DNA of 64,000 nucleotides, from contig CAXXDN010000002.1 in the NCBI GenBank assembly GCA_963667465.2, positions 1,792,001-1,856,000 of the forward strand. Reading direction: 5' to 3'. Below, one piece after another: positions 1-9,117 of the stretch (position 1 is its first letter; the number at the start of each line of letters is the position of its first letter). The DNA is from Dehalococcoidia bacterium (GTDB taxonomy: Bacteria > Chloroflexota > Dehalococcoidia > UBA2979). Both the position numbers and the translations under genes were made by a program. The notes under the pieces are model-generated. The model did no database searches, was not told the origin of the DNA, and saw nothing but the letters and a program-made list of their open reading frames with translations.

Positions 1-693
1 GCAGGGTTCGACAACCCATGCGTTCGGCCGGAGGTGAAGAGGACGCTCAGGAGCGCCACGCGAAAAGCCGGCAGGGCACAGAAGCAGGCCAAGGGGCTGA
101 CAGCAGACGGGCTCGCCGCGATCCGGTCGACAGCCTGCGAGCCGCGAGCCGGCAGGGGCGGGCGGCCGGAGAGTGCGGAGACTGCGGAGTCCCGAGGCAG
201 GCTGGACATCGCGGTAATCAGCCTCATGCGCGACGCCATGCTGAGGGTCTCAGAGGCCGCGGCCCTGACCTGGCTGGACATAGAAGAGGAACCTGACGGG
301 ACGGGGCGCCTCCTGATTCGGCGCTCCAAGACGGATCCTGAGGGTTCCGGTGTTGTCGCGTTCGTGTCCGCCCCGACCATGGAGGCGCTCGGATCGATAC
401 GAAACGGTGCCCCGACCAGCGCCAACATATTCGGGCTGCGGCCAAACCAGATGTCGAAGCGCATCAAGAAAGCCGCGCAGGCGGCGGGGCTCGGGGACGG
501 CTTCAGCGGTCACTCGCCACGGGTGGGGATGGCACAGGACCTTGTGCGGGCTGGCGTCGAGTTGCCCGGCCTCATGACGGCCGGGCGGTGGCGCACACCC
601 GCCATGCCAGCGCGCTATACCCGCAATGAGACCGCCAGCAGGGGCGCCATAGCGCAGTTCTACCGCACCTACCCCCTGGCCAGCCGAGCGTGA
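1..693 (+). CDS. Tyrosine recombinase, Cre-like (5' truncated by the window)
   Basis: Frame is open from base 1; catalytic motifs LRVSE, RRSKTD, GHSPRVG, GRW...RY (Trp at the second His position, as in Cre). Confidence 0.9.
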   Translation, partial: AGFDNPCVRPEVKRTLRSATRKAGRAQKQAKGLTADGLAAIRSTACEPRAGRGGRPESAETAESRGRLDIAVISLMRDAMLRVSEAAALTWLDIEEEPDGTGRLLIRRSKTDPEGSGVVAFVSAPTMEALGSIRNGAPTSANIFGLRPNQMSKRIKKAAQAAGLGDGFSGHSPRVGMAQDLVRAGVELPGLMTAGRWRTPAMPARYTRNETASRGAIAQFYRTYPLASRA

Positions 694-1093
694 GCGAGGA
701 CCAGGAGGAGTTTGCAGAGTATCAGTAGCCCGTAGTAGGCTCCGCCGGAGCAACCATCAATGCCGAGGAGTCAAGCGATGGATAACTGCACTTATTCTCG
801 CTTTGATTGTGAAGAACTGAACGACTAACCGCGTTCTTTAGTGACTGAAGCGGCCCCATCTTATCCTGCTCCTCGCGAAGCTGGTCGAAGACCACATAGC
901 TGCCTACTTGTATTGTACTCTTTGAGCTATTGTGTGGCAGTAATCGGACTGTAAGGAAACTGCATCAGCGCGACCGCATTTGACTCGACCTTGATGTAGC
1001 GCCGAATCCCGAGGATCCACCTCGGGGGTGCTGACTTACTGGCCCCGTGCGGGACCGTGCCTCTATCCAGGGAGGGTCCCTACCGGCCGCGAT

Positions 1094-1462
1094 TCATCGC
1101 TCGCTGCGCAGTCTCTCGCGGTGTTGAGCCCGAACGAACTTGATGAAGTTGTGAATCGACTCGACATCCTCAGGCGGGAGGCCGGTAACCGCGTCGCGGA
1201 ATGAGACCTCCGCGGCTTTGAGCAACTCGGACTCGACGACGGATTGCCCCAGGAGATGCTCGGGGCTCGTCTCGCAGTGGAACGCCACCTCGACGAGGTG
1301 TTCGTGCTGGGGCTTCATGCGCCCCGCCTCCCACGCCCAGACCGTGTGCGAAGCAACGCCGACGAGCTCACCGAGTTGGCGCTGGGTCAGGCCTACTCCC
1401 TTGCGCGCCTCACGGATGCGCGCCCCAAGGTCCTTCCAGCGGTATCCGCGATCCCTGGTCAT
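1094..1462 (-). CDS. XRE-family HTH repressor (cI-like, no S24 peptidase domain)
   Basis: LGARIREARKGVGLTQRQLGELVGVASHTVWAWEAG; ATG at 1462; divergent from the XRE trio. Confidence 0.88.
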   Translation of the reverse strand: MTRDRGYRWKDLGARIREARKGVGLTQRQLGELVGVASHTVWAWEAGRMKPQHEHLVEVAFHCETSPEHLLGQSVVESELLKAAEVSFRDAVTGLPPEDVESIHNFIKFVRAQHRERLRSER

Positions 1463-1514
1463 GCGTTGAGGGCCCCTGTCCTTCGCCCGCCGAGGGAGAT
1501 TGCGCCAACAGGAT

Positions 1515-1562
1515 AGAACGGGTGTTCTTGACATGCACTGTGGTCACGCATAGAGTACCACA
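1515..1562 (+). promoter_or_regulatory. Sigma70 promoter with LexA-type SOS box and an operator palindrome
   Basis: AGAAC-GGGT-GTTCT 1515-1528; TTGACA 1528-1533, 17 bp, TAGAGT 1551-1556; inverted repeat TGTGGT-N12-ACCACA 1539-1562 spanning the -10 box. Confidence 0.75.
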
Positions 1563-1600
1563 CTGTCCAGACGCAGATCATCGAGGAACTACGCACCGCC

Positions 1601-1843
1601 ATGCCCCGCCGTCGAGCCGTGGTCAGACTCAAGCCCGAGCCGCTCTGGGAGCGGTTGGCCGTTCTCGGTCGCTCCCAGAACTGGCTCGCGCGCGAGGCCG
1701 GGATCAGCCCCGGGTACCTGTCCATGCTCGTCAACGGCAAGCGCTCCCCATCTGGACGCCTCCGCCGGCGGTTGCAACGGATCCTCGAGGTGGAGGACTT
1801 CCATGAGCTGTTCACCTTCGGGTCCACGCCAGACGAACCGTAG
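1601..1843 (+). CDS. XRE-family HTH protein (Cro-like)
   Basis: SQNWLAREAGISPGYLSMLVNGKRSPS; GAGGA upstream. Confidence 0.85.
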   Translation: MPRRRAVVRLKPEPLWERLAVLGRSQNWLAREAGISPGYLSMLVNGKRSPSGRLRRRLQRILEVEDFHELFTFGSTPDEP

Positions 1844-1880
1844 GAGTTCGCCCCGGCTTCCGTTTCACGGCGGCGGACCG

Positions 1881-2153
1881 GTGATTGCTGGCCGTCCCGT
1901 GCCCTACCCGAGCGGCGAGTTGCCCGAGGACTTCCCGGAGCGGCTCGAACGGCTGAAGCACGCGAGTGGCCTCTCATGGGACGCCTTCGCCGAAGCCCTG
2001 GGCGTCGAACGCAAGCAGGTACTCCGCTGGCGTCGCGGCACCGAGCCCAGCGGCAGCGCCTACCACGCCCTCGTCGAGCTGGCCCGCTGGATCCCGGGCG
2101 GTATCGAGATCCTCTTCGGCGAGGACTTCTTCCCGTCCCCGGACGGGAGGTAG
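1881..2153 (+). CDS. XRE-family HTH protein
   Basis: FPERLERLKHASGLSWDAFAEALGVERKQVLRWRRG; start uncertain (GTG 1881). Confidence 0.8.
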   Translation: MIAGRPVPYPSGELPEDFPERLERLKHASGLSWDAFAEALGVERKQVLRWRRGTEPSGSAYHALVELARWIPGGIEILFGEDFFPSPDGR

Positions 2154-2156
2154 GTC

Positions 2157-2420
2157 ATGCCGCGACGTCGAGCGCGGCCCCGGCGGGTCGCCTACGCACA
2201 CCCCAACGGATTCGCCAGGAGCCTCGTCCGCATCAAAGAGGCGTCCGGTCTGACATGGGCGGCGCTCGCCCGCGAGCTCGGGACCACCACGCTCAACGTC
2301 TGGCGATGGCGGAAGGGCGTGCGCCCCAACGCGCACCACCTGCTCGCCCTCCAGGACCTGGCCCGTCGGATGGACCTCGAGCACCTACTACCGAGGGCGC
2401 ACGTGCGGCGGCGCCTGTAG
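2157..2420 (+). CDS. XRE-family HTH protein, paralogue of the upstream gene
   Basis: IKEASGLTWAALARELGTTTLNVWRWRKGVRP; GGGAGGT RBS. Confidence 0.85.
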   Translation: MPRRRARPRRVAYAHPNGFARSLVRIKEASGLTWAALARELGTTTLNVWRWRKGVRPNAHHLLALQDLARRMDLEHLLPRAHVRRRL

Positions 2421-2502
2421 GCGACAGGTCCATCATTGGAACCGCTACCAGGACGCGGACTCGGGCGACCGGTCCACTAGCGCCGACGGCCCGCTCGTCG
2501 CA

Positions 2503-5500
2503 TCAGGCTCCACTGAAGACGAACGCCGCCCAGAAGGATGGTGCGCTGTACCGTGCCGACCCATTCGAGACGCTCGACGACCGGCGGCCACGGGGCAGCG
2601 CGCGCAGTGGCGCTCGCATTGATTCATAAGCATCGAGCTCAGCTTCGTCCGCATCGCGCAGCCAGAGCTGAGCTTCGCGGAGCGCGGCCGCTGGTGGCCT
2701 CTTCGCGAGGAAGAGCTCCTCGTAGAACCTGGATACGATGAGGGCAGTTGCGAAGTCGTCCACCTCCCAGAGCGTCGAGATGACGCCTGCAGCCCCCGCG
2801 GCGACGAAAGCCGTCGCGAGGCCGAGAGCTTCATCCACCGCTTCGTACTCTTGGACCACACCTGTCTCGCACGCGGATGCGACCACGAGTCGGGCAGGGA
2901 TCTCCAGGCCGGCAACTTCGAGGGCGGAGAGTTCTTCCTCCCCTGAGAGCGACAGGGCCGCCGAGAGCAGTGGGTCCAAGAGTCCGCCTCCGCCGTGGCA
3001 GGCGAAGTGGACGTGCGTCGCTGGCGGCAGTACCTCCAACACCCGCTCCTTCGTCGCCTCTGCTCCCTTTAGCACCAGACTCTGTGCCGCCGGCACGAGT
3101 GCTTCAACGAGCTCGATCTCGAGTTCAGCTCCGTTGAGCGGGCGTGAGTGAGGGAGGGGGTTAGCGATCCCAACAAAACGAATCGGATCACTATCCTGCC
3201 GAGATGCGCGTTGCATGCAGGCGAGTTGGAGCCGAGCCGACGGGGCGAACGTCACATCGAAGTCGTCGATCAAGCACCGCTGACTCCCGGCAGGATCCCT
3301 CCAGGCAATAGCATGTAGCGGCATCAGCCCGAGGAGTCCCGCAGGGACCAGCGTGACACCGGACGCGCCGCGACCAGCCAGCGAGTCTGCGAGAGGGCGA
3401 AGCAGTTGTTCACCGATGAGGGGCGAGAGGGCCGCGATGGCTGTATCGAGATGCTCCGGCGCGTGCGCTTGGGCGGCCAGATATGCAGCCGAGCCCACGT
3501 GGGTCCCGTCCGCATCAAGACCCATCATCGCCATGCGAACGATCGCCTGCGAGTCACAATCAGGCGCGTGGATCGCCTCGACCTCTATGCCGGTATCGTC
3601 AGTTCTGTCCACGATGATCGCGAACGAGCCTCCGGGTGCGGAGCCTAGGTAGACGAGCGGCCGTTGGGGCTGTGCAACCTTGCCGATCCCATCGAGAGTC
3701 GGAGGATCAAGAGCCTTCTCGAAGGTTGGGATCTGTCGCAAAGCGGAGCGGATCCGCGCGAACCGCTCCGAGCGATCCGACGCTGAGCGGTCCTCCAAGC
3801 CGAGGATGTCCGCCCGGAACGAAGCGATCGCATTCTCAAGTTCGACACGCAGGCCCGGATCGAGGTGGGACAGCGCACCGAGATCGATGCTTTCGGCCAA
3901 CGTAAGCAAGCCGAGCTCCCTGGTTCGCCCGAGTTCCAGCGCCGTCACGGCCTTCTCTAGACGACCCGCGCGCACCAGTGCGTGTGCAGCGAAGCGAAAA
4001 TCTGTCGTGCTCTTGCTATGCTCCGACATCCGATCGTCGGCGTGCGAGTGGGTGGAGATCGCTGATGCTGCAGCCTCAATGAGGTGCTGTGCAGCATCTG
4101 CAGCGAGATCCACGTCGTCTCGCTCCTCTGCCAGCGCAATGAGGCGCCGACTGGCCTCGCGGGCCTCTGTCGGCCCCATGTCTGCCGACAAGGCGGTGAG
4201 TGCCATCTTCAGGGCTTCGATCGCGCCATCTTGATCGGCGCGTGCCGAGCGGATCTTTCCGATGGTGAACCATGCATGGCCAAAGCGGAGCGGCGACGCC
4301 CCCACCGGACTGAGTCGCACCGACTCCATGGCGCTCGCCTCGGCCCGATCTAGAAGCTCCGATTGATGAGCAGGGGCGATGCCAGCCAATTGCGAGAGCT
4401 GGTACTGCTGGGCGGCAAGATTGTGCTCGGCAGAAGCGAGGAGTGGGGCTTGGCTGGCAGAGCGCGCCCCGTCGCGCGCATTCGCGGTGTGACGGATGGC
4501 CCTACGCAGATTGGCCCCGCGATCGCCGGAGTCGGCACGCGCGTAGGCCATCCCAAGATGCAGTTGGGTGAAGGCCCAATTTCCGGGATCCCGCTCGCGT
4601 GACCGGTGATTCAGAGCAAGTTCAAGGTGTTCACGGGCCTGATCGACGTCACCTGCATCTCCGCGATTTAGAAGGAGGAGCGCGAGATTGGTCTGAGCCA
4701 TGGCCCAACTGTCGCGGTCGCCCGACTGCCATGACAGATCGATCGCGTCCCTGAGCAGTGTGATGCTCTGGGTGCGGCTCCATGCCGGATCGCCGCGCGG
4801 ACGGATCCCGAATGCCATGCTCAAGTTCATCAGAGTGGGGACTCGACGCTGCGGGTGATCGACGTCCGGGTGCGCGTCCAGGATCGAAATCACCATCCTG
4901 AGTAACTCGATGGCGCGTTCGATGTTCTGCTCGCGGTCTGCTCCCTCGCCCTCAAGGAGAGCCGCGGCTGTCCTGGCGGCTACTTCCGCCCGCCGCTCTG
5001 GATAGGTGCCCGACGGCAAGAAGTCCAGTAGATCTAGCCCGGCCTGAGCCAGTGCCTTCGGATCCGCTCCGCGCTTCGCATCCTCGAACGCGCGCTGCCG
5101 CGGAACGACCTCCTCATCCCAGAATCTGCGGATGACCGATTCGCGCACGGACCAGGCACCACTCAAGTCTCCCCGTCGGACGAGCTGCGCCGTTCGCAGC
5201 ATCGACTCGGCGAATCTCCGCCTGTCTTCAGTCGTGGCGCTTTCCAGATGCTGTCCGAGGCGCTGTTCCGCTTCGTCAGTCGCGATCTCCGGCCACCGCT
5301 CTACCACTTCGCGAAGTTGCTCCTCGCTCCCGACGAGCGCGAGGTCCTCAAGCCCACTCTCGATCCGCTGTCGCCTCTGATTGACCTCGATCGCCATCAG
5401 CAGTCTTCGATAAGCGGGTTCATGAGGAGCGGCGTCGCCTGCACCTGCTCTTAGCGCCTCGGCGTCGGCATCTATGTCCAGACCCACACCCGCCTCGAGC

Positions 5501-5850
5501 TCATCGAACGTAACCACTACGGGGGGGCCGGGGACTTCGCGAACGGCATCGCCCAACTCGTGTCGGACAACGGCGACTATATCGGCAAGGCCCTCGATTG
5601 GATCTAGATCGTCGTCGCTCGCGCGTGCCGCGATTAGAGGAGCTGCCTTCGCGAGGCGGAGCACAAGCAGCGGCATGGAGCGGTTCAGTGGCCGATCGCA
5701 ACTCGAGCACTTGGACTCGATCAGGTCCGGAAGTCGCTCAACCAGATCTGGGCGCTCAACGGCGTCGATCGCGAGCCACGTGACCTGCGAGGTCGCTTCG
5801 CCGCACCTAGCGCACTTCCAGTCCACGGTCCTGGCTTGGGATATCGGCAT
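2503..5850 (-). CDS. CpXC zinc-ribbon / TPR / CHAT (caspase-like protease) protein
   Basis: N-terminal CARC...CSSC pair; TPR-like repeats (WAMAQTNLA, WAFTQLHLGMAY); CHAT catalytic HFACHG and SACETG, LWEVDD, terminal FWAAFVFSG. ATG 5850 (upstream GTG 5886 possible). Confidence 0.9.
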   Translation of the reverse strand: MPISQARTVDWKCARCGEATSQVTWLAIDAVERPDLVERLPDLIESKCSSCDRPLNRSMPLLVLRLAKAAPLIAARASDDDLDPIEGLADIVAVVRHELGDAVREVPGPPVVVTFDELEAGVGLDIDADAEALRAGAGDAAPHEPAYRRLLMAIEVNQRRQRIESGLEDLALVGSEEQLREVVERWPEIATDEAEQRLGQHLESATTEDRRRFAESMLRTAQLVRRGDLSGAWSVRESVIRRFWDEEVVPRQRAFEDAKRGADPKALAQAGLDLLDFLPSGTYPERRAEVAARTAAALLEGEGADREQNIERAIELLRMVISILDAHPDVDHPQRRVPTLMNLSMAFGIRPRGDPAWSRTQSITLLRDAIDLSWQSGDRDSWAMAQTNLALLLLNRGDAGDVDQAREHLELALNHRSRERDPGNWAFTQLHLGMAYARADSGDRGANLRRAIRHTANARDGARSASQAPLLASAEHNLAAQQYQLSQLAGIAPAHQSELLDRAEASAMESVRLSPVGASPLRFGHAWFTIGKIRSARADQDGAIEALKMALTALSADMGPTEAREASRRLIALAEERDDVDLAADAAQHLIEAAASAISTHSHADDRMSEHSKSTTDFRFAAHALVRAGRLEKAVTALELGRTRELGLLTLAESIDLGALSHLDPGLRVELENAIASFRADILGLEDRSASDRSERFARIRSALRQIPTFEKALDPPTLDGIGKVAQPQRPLVYLGSAPGGSFAIIVDRTDDTGIEVEAIHAPDCDSQAIVRMAMMGLDADGTHVGSAAYLAAQAHAPEHLDTAIAALSPLIGEQLLRPLADSLAGRGASGVTLVPAGLLGLMPLHAIAWRDPAGSQRCLIDDFDVTFAPSARLQLACMQRASRQDSDPIRFVGIANPLPHSRPLNGAELEIELVEALVPAAQSLVLKGAEATKERVLEVLPPATHVHFACHGGGGLLDPLLSAALSLSGEEELSALEVAGLEIPARLVVASACETGVVQEYEAVDEALGLATAFVAAGAAGVISTLWEVDDFATALIVSRFYEELFLAKRPPAAALREAQLWLRDADEAELDAYESMRAPLRALPRGRRSSSVSNGSARYSAPSFWAAFVFSGA

Positions 5851-6150
5851 TTGGAACAGTCTCGGTTGCCGACGCAGCCCCGGCACTCATCCGTTGGAGG
5901 GCGGCGTTGATCGAAATCTCTTGAGCTTTGCGAATACCGCGAGGATCCCCAGCAGTCTCGCGCAACCGCGCTCCTCGACCAACCCTCCTCGCTCACCGGC
6001 TCTGACACGCCGGGGCCGTTCATGAATGAAGTCCCTTGCAGGGGACTCCGCGCGCGGGCCCGCGCCTCGACACTCCCCGCCCAGACTGTTGCACGATGCA
6101 CCCGACCCGCAGCTTCGCTGTCGCGCGCATCACACGGGCGAACAACCACC

Positions 6151-6366
6151 ATGGACCGCACACCTGACCGCGAGACTCGGGAAGCTCACGCCCCACGGAC
6201 TGCCGGAGAGCCGGCGGCCAAGGATGACGCCGTCGCGCTTGAGACCCGCTGGCGGACGGGTCCGCGAACACGGGCCTGGAGCGAACTCTGGCGCCGGCTC
6301 CTCGATGGGTTGCACGTCGCGCGGGCTAGCGATCGCCCCGCCACGGACGACGAGTCGGCATCGTAG
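6151..6366 (+). CDS. Small hypothetical protein upstream of the serine recombinase (possible directionality factor)
   Basis: Short ORF with amphipathic AWSELWRRLL motif, co-oriented with the recombinase; no clear RBS. Confidence 0.45.
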   Translation: MDRTPDRETREAHAPRTAGEPAAKDDAVALETRWRTGPRTRAWSELWRRLLDGLHVARASDRPATDDESAS

Positions 6367-6445
6367 GCGAGCCGCTGCTCAGCGAAGCTCACCCACGCGG
6401 CCGCAGTTGACGGCCGTCGTATCGTGATCCAGCGCCGGGAGGTGA

Positions 6446-8023
6446 ATGATGAAGGCGATTATCTACTCGCGCGTTTCGACGGACGCGCAGGAGCGCGACG
6501 GAACTTCGCTCGACACCCAGGAGCGTGCCTGCGCGGAGTACGCAACCGGGCAAGGTTGGGAGGTCGTCCGCCGCATCCGCGACACGGACAGCGGCGCTCT
6601 CCTCGAACGCGAAGGACTGACCGAACTGCGTGAAGCGCTCCGGCATGGGACGGCCGATGTGATCGTCGCCTTCGCCGTCGATCGCCTCTCGCGTAGCCAG
6701 AATCACATCGGCATCCTGTTCGACGAGTTCGAGGGCGCGGGCGTCACCATGGCCTTCGTGACCGAGCGCTTCGAGGACACGGCGGTCGGACGCTTCATCC
6801 TTGCCGCGCGCGCCTTCATCGCTGAGGTCGAGCGCGAGAAGATCGCTGAGCGCACGATGCGCGGCAAGGAAGAGCGCGCTCGCAGCGGTCGCATTCCCCA
6901 GGCGACAGGTCGCGGGATGTACGGCTACTGCTACGACTCCGACACCGGCCGTCGCGTCATCAACGGCGATCAGGCCGCTGTGGTCCGTCGTGTCTTCGAG
7001 GACTTCGCCGGCGGCGCGTCGATCATCGGCATTACCAACGCGCTCAACGAGGCAGGGACCCTGAGCTTCACAGGGCGAGCATGGTCGGCCTGGACCGTGA
7101 AGAACATGCTGCGCAACCCAGGGTATGCCGGGCGAACGATCTTCAAGCGCACGAAGACGGGCCACCGGCGCGATCCACTCACCGGCAAGCGGCGTCGCAC
7201 GGTCGCGCTGAGGAACGAGTCGGAGTGGATCGAGGTGCCGGACGCGACACCGGCGGTCATCTCCGAGCAGTTGTTCGATGCGGTGCAGACCCGGCTCCTC
7301 GACCCGGAGCGGCGGCGCCAGGCACAGCGTAAGAACGATTATCCCCTCCGTGGCACCGTGCGTTGCTCACACTGCCACAGCGCGATGGTGGGCCAGACGT
7401 CGATGGGCAAGTACCGCTACTACCGCTGCCGGCGGGCCTACGCGGGTCCGCGCCACGACCGCTGTCCTGCGCGGTACGTCCGCGCAGGTGACCTCGAGCG
7501 TGCGGTGGCGCGCGAGCTCACCACGGTGCTCGCCTCGCCGGAGGTGGTGCTGGCCGAGCTGGAGCATGCGTCCTCAGACGACGCGCGCGATGATGACTTG
7601 AGCGCCGCCCAGCAACTCGTCGCGTCGCTCGACGATCAGCGACAGCGGCTGCTCAAGCTCTTCCAAATGGGCGAGGTCGATGAGGCGTACCTGCAGAAGG
7701 AACTCGAGACGATCCGCGTCCGACGCTCGCCGGCCGAGGCGACCATCGCTCGACTGAACGGCTCGGGCTCGACGCCCCGCATTCCGGCGAACCCCGACGA
7801 GTTCGCCGCCACATGTGAGGCGCTGCGGGAGCGCGTCGCGGAGGAAGTCAAGGCGGGTCGGCTCAATGAAGTCGCCGAGGCGATGCAGATCTCGATCACG
7901 ATCGCGCGAACCGGCGACGGAGCGTCAGGCGCGCTCGAGGGCGTGATCCCGCACGAAATCGGTAGATTTGGCGAGGATTTTTCTCACCACTGCACGAACA
8001 TCGGCATGACGACGTGGGTGTAG
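6446..8023 (+). CDS. Large serine recombinase (integrase)
   Basis: YSRVST catalytic Ser, DRLSR, recombinase domain, zinc ribbon CSHC...YRC...C, coiled coil; GGAGGT RBS. Confidence 0.95.
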   Translation: MMKAIIYSRVSTDAQERDGTSLDTQERACAEYATGQGWEVVRRIRDTDSGALLEREGLTELREALRHGTADVIVAFAVDRLSRSQNHIGILFDEFEGAGVTMAFVTERFEDTAVGRFILAARAFIAEVEREKIAERTMRGKEERARSGRIPQATGRGMYGYCYDSDTGRRVINGDQAAVVRRVFEDFAGGASIIGITNALNEAGTLSFTGRAWSAWTVKNMLRNPGYAGRTIFKRTKTGHRRDPLTGKRRRTVALRNESEWIEVPDATPAVISEQLFDAVQTRLLDPERRRQAQRKNDYPLRGTVRCSHCHSAMVGQTSMGKYRYYRCRRAYAGPRHDRCPARYVRAGDLERAVARELTTVLASPEVVLAELEHASSDDARDDDLSAAQQLVASLDDQRQRLLKLFQMGEVDEAYLQKELETIRVRRSPAEATIARLNGSGSTPRIPANPDEFAATCEALRERVAEEVKAGRLNEVAEAMQISITIARTGDGASGALEGVIPHEIGRFGEDFSHHCTNIGMTTWV

Positions 8024-9117
8024 CGGTCGTCGCCGACGGGGCGGAGGACGCCGGGGCTTGAGGGGGAGCTGGTTTCGACGGCGACCCGGTCGGCGTCGAG
8101 GACTTGCAGGACCTCGGTCAGATAGCGGCTGTTGAAGGCGATCTTCGCCTCCTCGCCTTCGACGATGGCGTCCAGCTCACCTTCGTTGTTGCCCAGCTCT
8201 TCGGCGCGCGCGGTGATCAGCAGCCGACCGGGCGCGGCGTCCTCGCCCGGGGTGGCGACGAGCCGCACGATGCCGGATCCGTCGCGCGCGAAGATCGAGG
8301 CGATGCGCGTCTCTCGCATGAACTCGGCGACGGCGATCTCGGTCCGCGTGGCGTGCGCGCTGGGAATCAACTGGTCGTAGTTGGGGAACGTGCCCTGCAA
8401 CAGCGTGGCGCTCAGCGTCGCGTGGCCGAGGTCGAAGAGCACCTGCGTGCCGACGGCGTTGAAGCGCATCTCCACCGGGTCCTCGACCTCGGCGAGCATC
8501 CGCGCCAGTTCGCCGAGGGCGCGCGCGGGGACGATCGCCTCGCGCTCGGGGGGACTGCCTTCGAGCTCCATCGTGTGGACCGCGAGGCGAAAGCCGTCGG
8601 CGGCGGCGAGGCGCAACTGGTCACCCTTGATGCCGAAGTGGACGCCGGTGAGCACCGGCCGGGAGTTGTCCGTCGCAGCGGCGAAGACCACCTGGTTGAT
8701 TGCGCGCCGAAGCGCGGCCGGATCGAGGGTGAGCGAGTCTCCGTCCTCGACCGGGGGGATGGGCGGGAAGTCGTCCGCGCTCTGCCCGCCGATGGAGGCC
8801 TCGTTGCGGGCACAGGAGAGGCTGACCTGGCGCGAGCGTTCGGCCAGCGAGAGGTTGATCGGCTGCTGCGGGAGCGAGGCGACGAAGTCGGAGAGCAGCC
8901 GCGAGGGGAGCGTGATCGCCCCGGCTTCCTCGGTGTCGGAGGCGATCGTGTAGGTGATCGCGATCGTCTCGGCATCCGTCGCCGAGAGCGTGAGGCTCGA
9001 GTCGCCCGACTCGAGCAGGATGTGACCGGCGATGGGGAGCGAAGATCGCGCTGGTACGGCGCGCGACACGGCGCTCAGGCCGCGGTGAAGGGCTTCCTGT
9101 TGGACCGTAAGCTGCAT
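7984..9117 (-). CDS. dnaN: DNA polymerase III beta sliding clamp
   Basis: 377 aa; SRPVLTGV, AADGFRL, GTFPNY, IAFNSRYL, VVMPM. Confidence 0.97.
   Translation of the reverse strand: MQLTVQQEALHRGLSAVSRAVPARSSLPIAGHILLESGDSSLTLSATDAETIAITYTIASDTEEAGAITLPSRLLSDFVASLPQQPINLSLAERSRQVSLSCARNEASIGGQSADDFPPIPPVEDGDSLTLDPAALRRAINQVVFAAATDNSRPVLTGVHFGIKGDQLRLAAADGFRLAVHTMELEGSPPEREAIVPARALGELARMLAEVEDPVEMRFNAVGTQVLFDLGHATLSATLLQGTFPNYDQLIPSAHATRTEIAVAEFMRETRIASIFARDGSGIVRLVATPGEDAAPGRLLITARAEELGNNEGELDAIVEGEEAKIAFNSRYLTEVLQVLDADRVAVETSSPSSPGVLRPVGDDRYTHVVMPMFVQW

Follow-up and report, generated by a model that had tools for sequence, protein, structure and literature searches.

The stretch analysed here (the window) comprises 64,000 nucleotides, positions 1792001-1856000 of contig C2 of the source genome G000, a window coordinate being the C2 coordinate minus 1792000. 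The genome measures 2.97 Mb in two contigs, with about 70.5-70.7% GC. We focused on window positions 1-8023, where the gene of a large serine recombinase (LSR) runs into the 3' end of dnaN, the gene of the replication clamp, and also examined the 100 kb to the left of the window. These positions form only the right-hand tenth of a larger element, which we read as an integrative conjugative element (ICE). Related genomes are numbered from G001 onwards, and individual loci carry L-numbers. The features of the region are the following (aa, amino acids).

C2:1791353-1792693, plus strand: Cre-like tyrosine recombinase, 446 aa, whose C-terminal half occupies window 1-693.
Window position 1: the edge of the window and no end of the element, 76.7 kb of which lie beyond it to the left.
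Window 1094-1462, minus strand: XRE-family repressor, 122 aa from its likely start, longest frame to 1534 (HTH_31, 37 bits).
Window 1515-1528: LexA-type box, an exact 14-base GAAC-N4-GTTC palindrome.
Window 1528-1556, plus strand: rightward promoter, TTGACA-17-TAGAGT, whose -35 element the box abuts or overlaps.
Window 1601-1843, plus strand: 80-aa helix-turn-helix (HTH) gene, present in only some family members.
Window 1803-2153, plus strand: 116-aa HTH gene, below the Pfam threshold.
Window 2157-2420, plus strand: 87-aa HTH gene, below the Pfam threshold.
Window 2399-6025, minus strand: CHAT insertion, a clean single-gene insertion.
Window 2503-5886, minus strand: open reading frame (ORF) of the CHAT gene (PF12770, 2e-51).
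Window 6151-6366, plus strand: 71-aa gene directly upstream of the LSR, candidate LSR-binding factor (directionality factor).
Window 6446-8023, plus strand: LSR, 525 aa, with Resolvase, Recombinase and Zn_ribbon_recom domains.
Window 7984-9117, minus strand: dnaN, beta clamp of 377 aa with all three clamp domains, intact and single-copy.
Window 7997-8004: inferred crossover of 8 bases within the dnaN Pro-Met-Phe codons (antisense).
Window 7998-8009 (C2:1799998-1800009): attR core, 12 bases.

The LSR gene and dnaN overlap by 40 bases, the last 13 LSR codons lying antisense to dnaN. The three Pfam domains of the LSR are matched with E values of 2e-32 to 9e-15, and residues R9 and S11 and the zinc-ribbon cysteines are invariant in 10 relatives (an alignment of 10 rows, from which L027 was left out for its stop codon); S11, as read by its position, is the putative nucleophile. 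The best NCBIfam rows for the protein are CcrB, XisF and CcrC, all far below cut-off. We mapped the crossover from the variant bases that travel with each flank and from the homology breakpoints in G001, G014, G018 and G013, which place it at the 8 bases given above. The dnaN DNA past the Pro-Met-Phe codons is element-derived and comprises four or five final codons plus the stop; the clamp retains its C-terminal end, FVQW in G000 and FVQWS in G001. By eye, each arm of the joined site shows a T-rich motif of 13 bases, the two copies forming an imperfect inverted repeat about equally far from the core; LSR attachment sites are built as paired inverted-repeat arms around a core. We found no displaced dnaN 3' fragment in G000 by tblastn or blastn, and since the replaced part amounts to only ~8 codons, the ends were located via comparison with relatives. 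In the proposed mechanism, the attachment site used by the LSR lies at the 3' end of the LSR gene itself, and recombination of this site with the final dnaN codons would have inserted the element; the clamp would stay whole, as the element brings a copy of the replaced codons with it. The target codons encode what we take to be the conserved C-terminal residues of the clamp, and this conservation would explain how a single site serves hosts whose dnaN genes are only ~50% identical.

The other end of the element, its conjugation genes and a second element beside it lie to the left of the window.

C2:1715243-1715254: attL core, 12 bases.
C2:1715255-1800004: mobile unit (ICE-1 unit), 84.8 kb, consisting of a ~70-kb ICE and two small cassettes fused at its left end.
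C2:1761117-1770321, minus strand: backbone with SNF2-like helicase, DUF6094 methyltransferase-like protein and DnaG-like primase.
C2:1772916-1783533, plus strand: conjugation module with VirB6-like protein, pilin, VirB4-like protein, coupling protein and Replic_Relax protein.
C2:~1688000-1715254: ICE-2, a second complete, compact ICE of the same family, directly left of the ICE-1 unit (tandem).

The outer attL and attR cores are both intact, and at both G000 junctions the flanks of the core switch among three sequences, namely the LSR end, dnaN and the left arm of the element. The elements of G013 and G018 have at their left ends the same left-arm sequence that follows the attL core here, and the close relative G001 is without the 85 kb at its dnaN site. 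At 8-31 kb to the left of the window are the type IV secretion system (T4SS) module, the primase and the Replic_Relax protein. Specifically, a 758-aa VirB4/TraC-like ATPase matches P-loop_TraG, AAA_10 and TraC_F_IV, and an 864-aa coupling protein matches TrwB_AAD_bind, all above curated cut-offs, as are the matches to TrbL (the VirB6-like protein) and T4SS_pilin; the 543-aa Replic_Relax protein gives a modest match of 30.4 bits against a cut-off of 25.3. The nearest plasmid VirB4 proteins, at 25-38% identity, are of the Gram-positive 'CD1110' type. The family gene order, which runs helicase, primase, T4SS, Replic_Relax, ImmA-like, XRE, HTH genes, small ORF and LSR, is also found in ICE-2 and in G001, G012, G013 and G018, and relatives keep several backbone copies per genome. 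Additionally, the GC content of the bins of window 1-8000 is 58-71%, mostly 63-69%, compared with ~70.5% for the genome, which fits horizontal acquisition.

The locus thus combines the marks by which an ICE is recognised: a recombinase at one end, mating-pair-formation genes of its own, attL and attR ends, and absence from the corresponding site of a close relative. Because the T4SS, the coupling protein, the Replic_Relax protein and the primase all lie inside the ends, we class it as an ICE and not as a satellite. Together, these findings lead us to conclude, with a probability of roughly 0.85, that window 1-8023, with its regulation, integration and cargo genes, is one end of an ICE of a Tepidiformaceae-like member of the Dehalococcoidia, an ICE that its LSR inserted in the last codons of dnaN and that would be under LexA/SOS control.

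An earlier reading of the window from its letters (the original prediction) had taken the region for a damage-responsive integrative element or phage satellite of no named architecture, put at dnaN by the serine enzyme. Integration at dnaN by that enzyme is borne out by the junction comparison with G001 and by the recurrent LSR-dnaN adjacency described below, whereas the satellite gives way to an ICE, whose conjugation genes begin just left of the window; the remark that such genes are missing holds inside the window only. All genes were placed where we find them, and the right end agrees with the attachment core at 7998-8009, but the supposed left end was the window edge, 76.7 kb short. Following the contig leftwards, as had been proposed, shows the other att site, the attL core listed above.

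The association of this LSR family with dnaN is recurrent. We searched 41 genomes (G000 and 40 relatives), 37 of them with a dnaN match and 25 with an LSR match at E 1e-20 or better. Of the 37 with a dnaN match, 12 (G000, G001, G002, G003, G010, G012, G013, G015, G016, G018, G020 and G021) have a convergent LSR whose end lies no more than 150 bp from the dnaN stop, and in G022 just the tail of an LSR is left as a remnant; within the genus the adjacency occurs in 10 of 19 genomes, G000 counted. A search of other Chloroflexota genomes with LSR peptide patterns, several of whose loci belong to the same genomes as the G-numbered relatives, found dnaN at the LSR end in 22 of 30 loci. Since one of these patterns is itself coded antisense by dnaN, a stricter count requiring at least 300 matched LSR residues was also used, which leaves 21 loci, 17 of them with dnaN abutting the LSR. 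The dnaN-abutting loci include an Anaerolineaceae record, a Thermoflexus record and, in addition, LSRs just 30-35% identical. No LSR was found near dnaN in G011 and G017 (1.5-kb flank) or in L042 (3.1-kb flank).

The LSR and dnaN do not share one history. Between G001 and G000, dnaN is 99% identical while the dnaN-adjacent LSRs are 56% identical; the LSR adjoining dnaN in G001 is of the ICE-2 type, and its counterpart in G000 lies 85 kb away with 96% DNA identity. Between G018 and G000, the DNA identity of dnaN is ~77-78%, compared with 90-93% for the backbone, 96% for LSR2 and 98% for cassette A. This discordance argues for repeated integration rather than inheritance, and segments 90-98% identical in a species whose dnaN is 78% identical point to recent transfer.

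Contigs of four public runs from three studies, labelled sponge metagenomes, bridge the LSR-dnaN junction without a difference; one of the studies may include the source sample. Among the loose contig ends listed, none at the core carried the left arm of the element; contigs drop rare forms and are uninformative on excision. At window 7986 there are loose ends in X15 (4 contigs) and X16 (3 contigs) that look like relatives' dnaN with other downstream DNA. Contig depth peaks over the catalytic part of the LSR (window 6642-6962), several-fold to ~40-fold in X15, X16 and X19 with a small rise in X2, which fits many related LSR genes in those samples.

Several further observations concern dnaN itself. 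A displaced 94-aa dnaN 3' fragment lies beside an LSR pseudogene in G003 (C4:1583-3406), and a 27-aa dnaN fragment lies 500 bp past the full gene in G032 (C131:4546-4626); we regard both as signs of other integrations that duplicated longer dnaN pieces. G009:C1 and G014:C4 (L006, L010, L054) have a common flank directly past the dnaN stop, and 21-23 kb without an LSR separates their dnaN from an LSR-bearing element; this stretch may be another kind of element using the dnaN site. In the G000 assembly dnaN is not beside dnaA, which is on the other contig (C1:423712-424188).

We next consider the control region. The divergently placed XRE-family repressor, which is conserved in 9 loci, resembles capH (PADLOC, 1.3e-10) and the RstR family (NCBIfam, 9e-13), and it alone gives PADLOC rows of the capH/RmrA HTH type. 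The 116-aa and 87-aa HTH genes are mutual paralogues and occur in all family members examined. The count of four XRE genes in the original prediction is correct for two, since only two of the repressor and three HTH genes pass Pfam cut-offs and the 116-aa and 87-aa genes fall below threshold. The exact LexA-type box occurs once in the window and 20 times in the 2.97-Mb genome. Of the genomic sites, one stands 78 bp ahead of recA, one 165 bp ahead of ruvB and one between the gene of an error-prone DnaE2-type polymerase and a Y-family polymerase-like gene. Next to the -35 element, the box is conserved in 7 of the 9 family members whose control region was available, in which the half-sites are kept and the 4-base spacer differs. 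Conservation of the half-sites and the recurrence of the motif at recA, ruvB and dnaE2 support the box as a putative LexA operator. The SOS-type box noticed earlier is a real palindrome beside a TTGACA-17-TAGAGT promoter, and the damage control drawn from it is plausible.

Where the slot is empty, the HTH genes and the LSR downstream of them share one strand, so that the damage-controlled promoter would serve the LSR. LexA, and probably the XRE repressor too, would hold down the rightward promoter, which would read through the small HTH genes towards the 71-aa partner and the LSR; on DNA damage the promoter would be released, and the element would excise and transfer by conjugation. Two ImmA-like (M78) genes are also present.

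C2:1783829-1784368 (L001:11829-12368), minus strand: ImmA-like gene.
C2:1790706-1791191 (L001:18706-19191), minus strand: ImmA-like gene.

In these proteins H-A-x-x-H replaces HEXXH, the catalytic Glu being changed to Ala, in all nine distinct copies compared (the two of L001 and homologues in L016, L017, L018, L026, L047 and L053), and the proteins may bind rather than cut. The absence of the HEXXH Glu is why we do not class the switch as ImmR/ImmA; in ICE-1, moreover, the recombinase gene separates an ImmA-like gene from the XRE repressor.

The 71-aa gene upstream of the LSR, with its conserved Trp/Arg-rich motif, is found in that position in 13 loci, including ICE-2 and an Anaerolineaceae element. 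A complex model of the LSR with the 71-aa protein scored 0.75, compared with 0.17 for the best of three controls; a score this high is reached by 58 of 80 solved complexes and by 2 of 110 mismatched pairs, counts that apply only approximately since the alignments used here were our own. The model runs agreed in at least 77% of contacts, with a predicted local distance difference test (pLDDT) value of at least 56 for the partner. The modelled contacts fall on LSR residues 345-375 and 444-505, which would correspond to the region in which directionality factors bind serine integrases. The 71-aa protein is thus predicted to bind the LSR.

The C-terminus of the LSR depends on the state of the element. 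The integrated LSR ends in five residues read antisense from dnaN, and an LSR read into the left arm, as in a circular form, would gain a 19-residue tail instead. Neither the length of this tail nor its stop position varies among the six left arms examined that lie at an LSR end or remnant (three in G000 and those of G018, G013 and L034), which represent at least three lineages; the tail has a conserved Cys-x3-Cys core and shows synonymous changes. A seventh match to the tail motif, L041, is not at an LSR end and is without such a stop, and the ICE-2 LSR stops at the core in a different frame. The conservation of the tail may simply reflect a DNA-binding half-site. That the tail swap and the 71-aa partner form a built-in sensor of the integrated versus the free state, setting the direction or the stability of recombination, is a speculation to which we give little credence. 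Mycobacteriophages have integration-dependent immunity; we know of no such integration-state device in a serine-recombinase element.

The cargo of the right-hand end is the CHAT gene, whose insertion measures 3.6 kb in G000 and compares with 49 bp in G012. At its N-terminus the protein has a Cys4 domain, whose four Cys are conserved; helical repeats come next, and then the CHAT domain, the His and Cys of whose dyad do not vary among 30 relatives. As predicted by the fold model (pLDDT 84.4, predicted template modelling score 0.75), a small beta domain is followed by ~560 residues of helical repeats and the CHAT domain. The best matches of the model are Csx29, DdvA, separase and TPR proteins, with 8eey_B as the top Foldseek match (E 5e-13, template modelling score 0.52 by target). 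The gene was originally described as CpXC-TPR-CHAT. Its CpXC part falls below threshold (20.6 bits against a cut-off of 25.4), and TPR is supported only by the fold model, in which the repeats are visible, since by sequence the helical middle yields only weak Sel1/TPR_2 Pfam rows. In the modelled structure a CHAT domain with its dyad is preceded by TPR-type repeats, which is the arrangement of a TPR-CHAT protease.

We found 42 near-full-length CHAT relatives, those with a source name being Chloroflexota metagenome-assembled genomes, and among the 41 genomes CHAT matches occur in just two. In G018 the CHAT gene lies beside the 87-aa HTH gene, inside a 17-kb insertion of another ICE copy. No conserved partner gene is common to the 8 loci of CHAT relatives compared; the neighbouring 87-aa HTH gene is shared with G018 only, and a coupling-protein gene is nearby in L062 only. 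Our guess, which is tentative and could well be wrong, is a stand-alone caspase-like protease used in conflict with phages.

The slot that holds the CHAT gene varies among elements. Among 10 elements it is empty in six (G013, G018:C2, G002, L018, L026 and ICE-2). The insertions of G000, G004 and G014 lie between the 87-aa HTH gene and the small ORF, and that of G012 lies between the small ORF and the LSR. Besides the CHAT gene of G000, the contents are a DndB-like gene, an 856-aa gene, a DNA methylase and an insertion sequence (IS) in G014, transposase-like ORFs in G004, and an IS21-type element with ORFs without assignment in G012, the transposase-like ORFs of G004 and G012 being called IS-like from repetition only. 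The suggestion that the slot is a defence hotspot is right in that the slot varies, being filled in 4 of 10 elements, but IS-like DNA is present in three of the four filled slots and possible defence genes in two. The slot is variable, then, and from its contents not clearly a defence hotspot.

The Cre-like gene starts 647 bases left of the window. Its product matches Pfam Phage_integrase at 7.9e-11, and 17 of its 18 PDB matches are Cre chains, with E about 1e-12, which makes the Cre-like label a fair one. The gene lies inside the element ends, as was originally supposed, and does not belong to a separate neighbour. It is found between the ImmA-like gene and the repressor in G000, G012 and G018:C2 and is absent from the elements of G013 and G001 and from ICE-2; the recombinase is accessory. 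A search for lox-like inverted repeats around the gene found none. Multimer resolution and descent from another element, of which the enzyme would be a relic, are the two candidates for its role.

Further left, the unit is composite.

C2:1715255-~1724240: cassette A, DUF6791-ThiF and AbiEii/AbiEi, without recombinase.
C2:~1724260-~1730120: cassette B, KAP NTPase and Fic, without recombinase.
C2:1730140-1759209: cargo with helicases, SMC-like ATPases, IS21-type element and Ssp-like cluster.
C2:1739885-1742325 (L046:7885-10325): IS21-type element in the ICE cargo, with 251-aa and 502-aa genes.
C2:1745342-1751744 (L046:13342-19744): Ssp-like cluster with genes for a PAPS-reductase-type protein, a 1126-aa protein, a DUF4007 protein and a class-V aminotransferase (cysteine desulfurase type).
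C2:1785488-1790416 (L001:13488-18416), minus strand: 1642-aa repeat-protein gene, accessory cargo of surface type.

G000 has three copies of the left arm, the first at attL and the inner two at C2:1724259 and C2:1730140; each of the inner copies follows a decayed remnant of an LSR gene end, that is, a fossil junction. Cassette A is 98% identical to G018:C2 across 7.65 kb, and there it likewise precedes a related ICE, ~80 kb from the LSR of that ICE; this arrangement is why the composite of cassettes and ICE seems to move as one unit. The Ssp-like cluster, with its PAPS-reductase, DUF4007 and class-V aminotransferase genes, resembles a DNA phosphorothioation module of the Ssp type. The IS21-type element has at least 20 copies in G012 at 91% identity. 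The 1642-aa gene is low in GC (54-65% in 500-base bins), encodes many tandem ~90-residue repeats and has no PADLOC match; a 303-aa cadherin-like gene lies beside it, and the cadherin-like family is multicopy in relatives. ICE-2 has an LSR of its own (56% identical), is without the Cre-like gene and has an empty slot; it also contains a small gene of LexA_DNA_bind type (C2:1711272-1711433). A decayed third copy of the ICE backbone, with an SNF2-like gene (89% identity), a coupling-protein fragment and an LSR fragment, lies at C2:470349-480694 of G000.

Several points weigh against a functional, LexA-controlled ICE. Neither an excised circle, nor a same-strain empty site, nor transfer was seen in the public runs, which were used as contigs only. 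The relaxase assignment depends on the modest Replic_Relax match of 30 bits. ICE-2 and L026 are without the exact box, which could be the operator of the element's own repressor instead of LexA, and a proteolytic switch of the ICEBs1 type is doubtful given the altered ImmA-like motif. PADLOC gives no real match for the CHAT protein, the only row being BovA (E 0.0031, 14 bits). Moreover, the reversed CHAT gene between the promoter and the LSR, together with the IS21-type element in the cargo, may impair mobility.

Some of these points recur in the alternative of a fixed, decaying ICE remnant, once inserted at dnaN and now unable to excise or transfer, which is unlikely. The CHAT gene inserted in opposite orientation, the IS21-type element, the decay of the two internal attachment junctions, the ImmA-like genes without the HEXXH Glu and the failure to see a circular junction in contigs all speak for it. 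Nevertheless, the LSR and the backbone genes used as queries are full-length and free of stops, the outer attL and attR cores are intact, and the 90-98% identical segments in a species whose dnaN is only 78% identical point to recent transfer. A very improbable alternative is a split into two adjacent elements, with the T4SS block belonging to one and the LSR, together with the HTH genes and the cargo, to a small integrative mobilizable element of its own. The right-hand 15 kb is indeed lower in GC than the T4SS block, and the two blocks are separated by duplicated ImmA-like genes and a second recombinase, but T4SS, Replic_Relax, ImmA-like, XRE, HTH and LSR genes follow each other in the same order and insert-free in ICE-2, G001 and G013, no attachment core lies between the blocks, and the matching left arm is found beyond the T4SS block.

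A prophage or phage satellite at dnaN is less probable still. LSRs and XRE/Cro-like switches are common in temperate phages, and phage relatives of this LSR share 25-32% identity with it; however, a full conjugation module is present, and capsid, portal, terminase and tail families are matched by none of the 44 scanned products between attL and attR (38 from the ICE-1 unit and 6 PADLOC queries, with some small ORFs outside the scan). Finally, old and vertically inherited synteny of the LSR and dnaN, suggested by an adjacency shared by 10 of 19 genomes of the genus, can scarcely be upheld against the discordant identities (dnaN 99% and LSR 56% for G001; dnaN 77% and adjacent LSR 96% in DNA for G018), the lack of the LSR within 1.5 kb in G011 and G017 and within 3.1 kb in L042, and the tandem arrays with repeated junctions.

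The ICE at dnaN can be compared with several known systems. The staphylococcal SCC/SCCmec cassettes are likewise inserted by LSRs (CcrAB or CcrC) in a way that spares a conserved housekeeping gene, at the 3' end of rlmH. SCC arrays grow by tandem accretion, with repeated junctions, and their cassettes bear defence genes (PMC11470126); LexA represses the ccr promoters, DNA damage raising excision (PMC5397144). In contrast to SCC, which is without conjugation genes and targets rlmH, the element described here targets dnaN in another phylum and has a single LSR with a 71-aa candidate partner. Islands at ssrA in Dehalococcoides come from the same bacterial class: they have a CcrB-like serine recombinase of ~540 aa at the island edge and, like the dnaN ICE, a single-copy essential gene as target and a repeat of its 3' end, and their tandem arrays include recombinase-less cassettes, read by the authors as accretion (PMC3146451). 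They differ in targeting a transfer-messenger RNA gene, in their size of ~12 kb, in being mobilizable without a T4SS and in having a second, small serine recombinase (PMC3146451), whereas the dnaN ICE is inserted at the 3' end of a protein-coding gene and, judged by its genes, is self-transmissible.

The dnaN ICE has an LSR at dnaN, ImmA-like genes without the HEXXH Glu and a LexA-type box on the promoter itself, whereas ICEBs1 of Bacillus subtilis has a tyrosine integrase and sits at a tRNA gene. ICEBs1 is the nearest model for the control layout. It shares the Gram-positive-type T4SS and SOS induction, and its XRE repressor and adjacent M78 gene are likewise divergent from the promoter for excision functions (PMC5812530); there, dnaN is mentioned only as a replication factor. 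The modelled CHAT protein resembles Csx29 (type III-E CRISPR Craspase), DdvA and separase in having helical repeats followed by a caspase-like CHAT domain. It differs from Csx29 in its additional Cys4 N-terminal domain and in its neighbours, which are ICE genes with no CRISPR genes nearby, and the NCBIfam Csx29 row gives 49 bits against a cut-off of 300. In the literature searched, we found no report linking dnaN with a serine recombinase or an integrase attachment site, and LSR catalogues may list dnaN-like targets; the dnaN 3' end as an insertion target is apparently undescribed, while the kind of element, an ICE, is already known.

Together, our data describe an element family that is ordinary in kind and useful in its details, and whose membership among ICEs is well supported. 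It adds a family self-transmissible by gene content to the Chloroflexota, a little-studied phylum known mostly from uncultured genomes. The many defence-type genes carried by the ICE make it a route for their spread in this lineage. The LSRs, with their readable attachment sites and a candidate small partner, could be put to use in recombinase biochemistry and tool-building. Integration recurs at the 3' codons of the clamp gene, where elements also accrete in tandem, much as they do at rlmH in staphylococci and at ssrA in Dehalococcoides.

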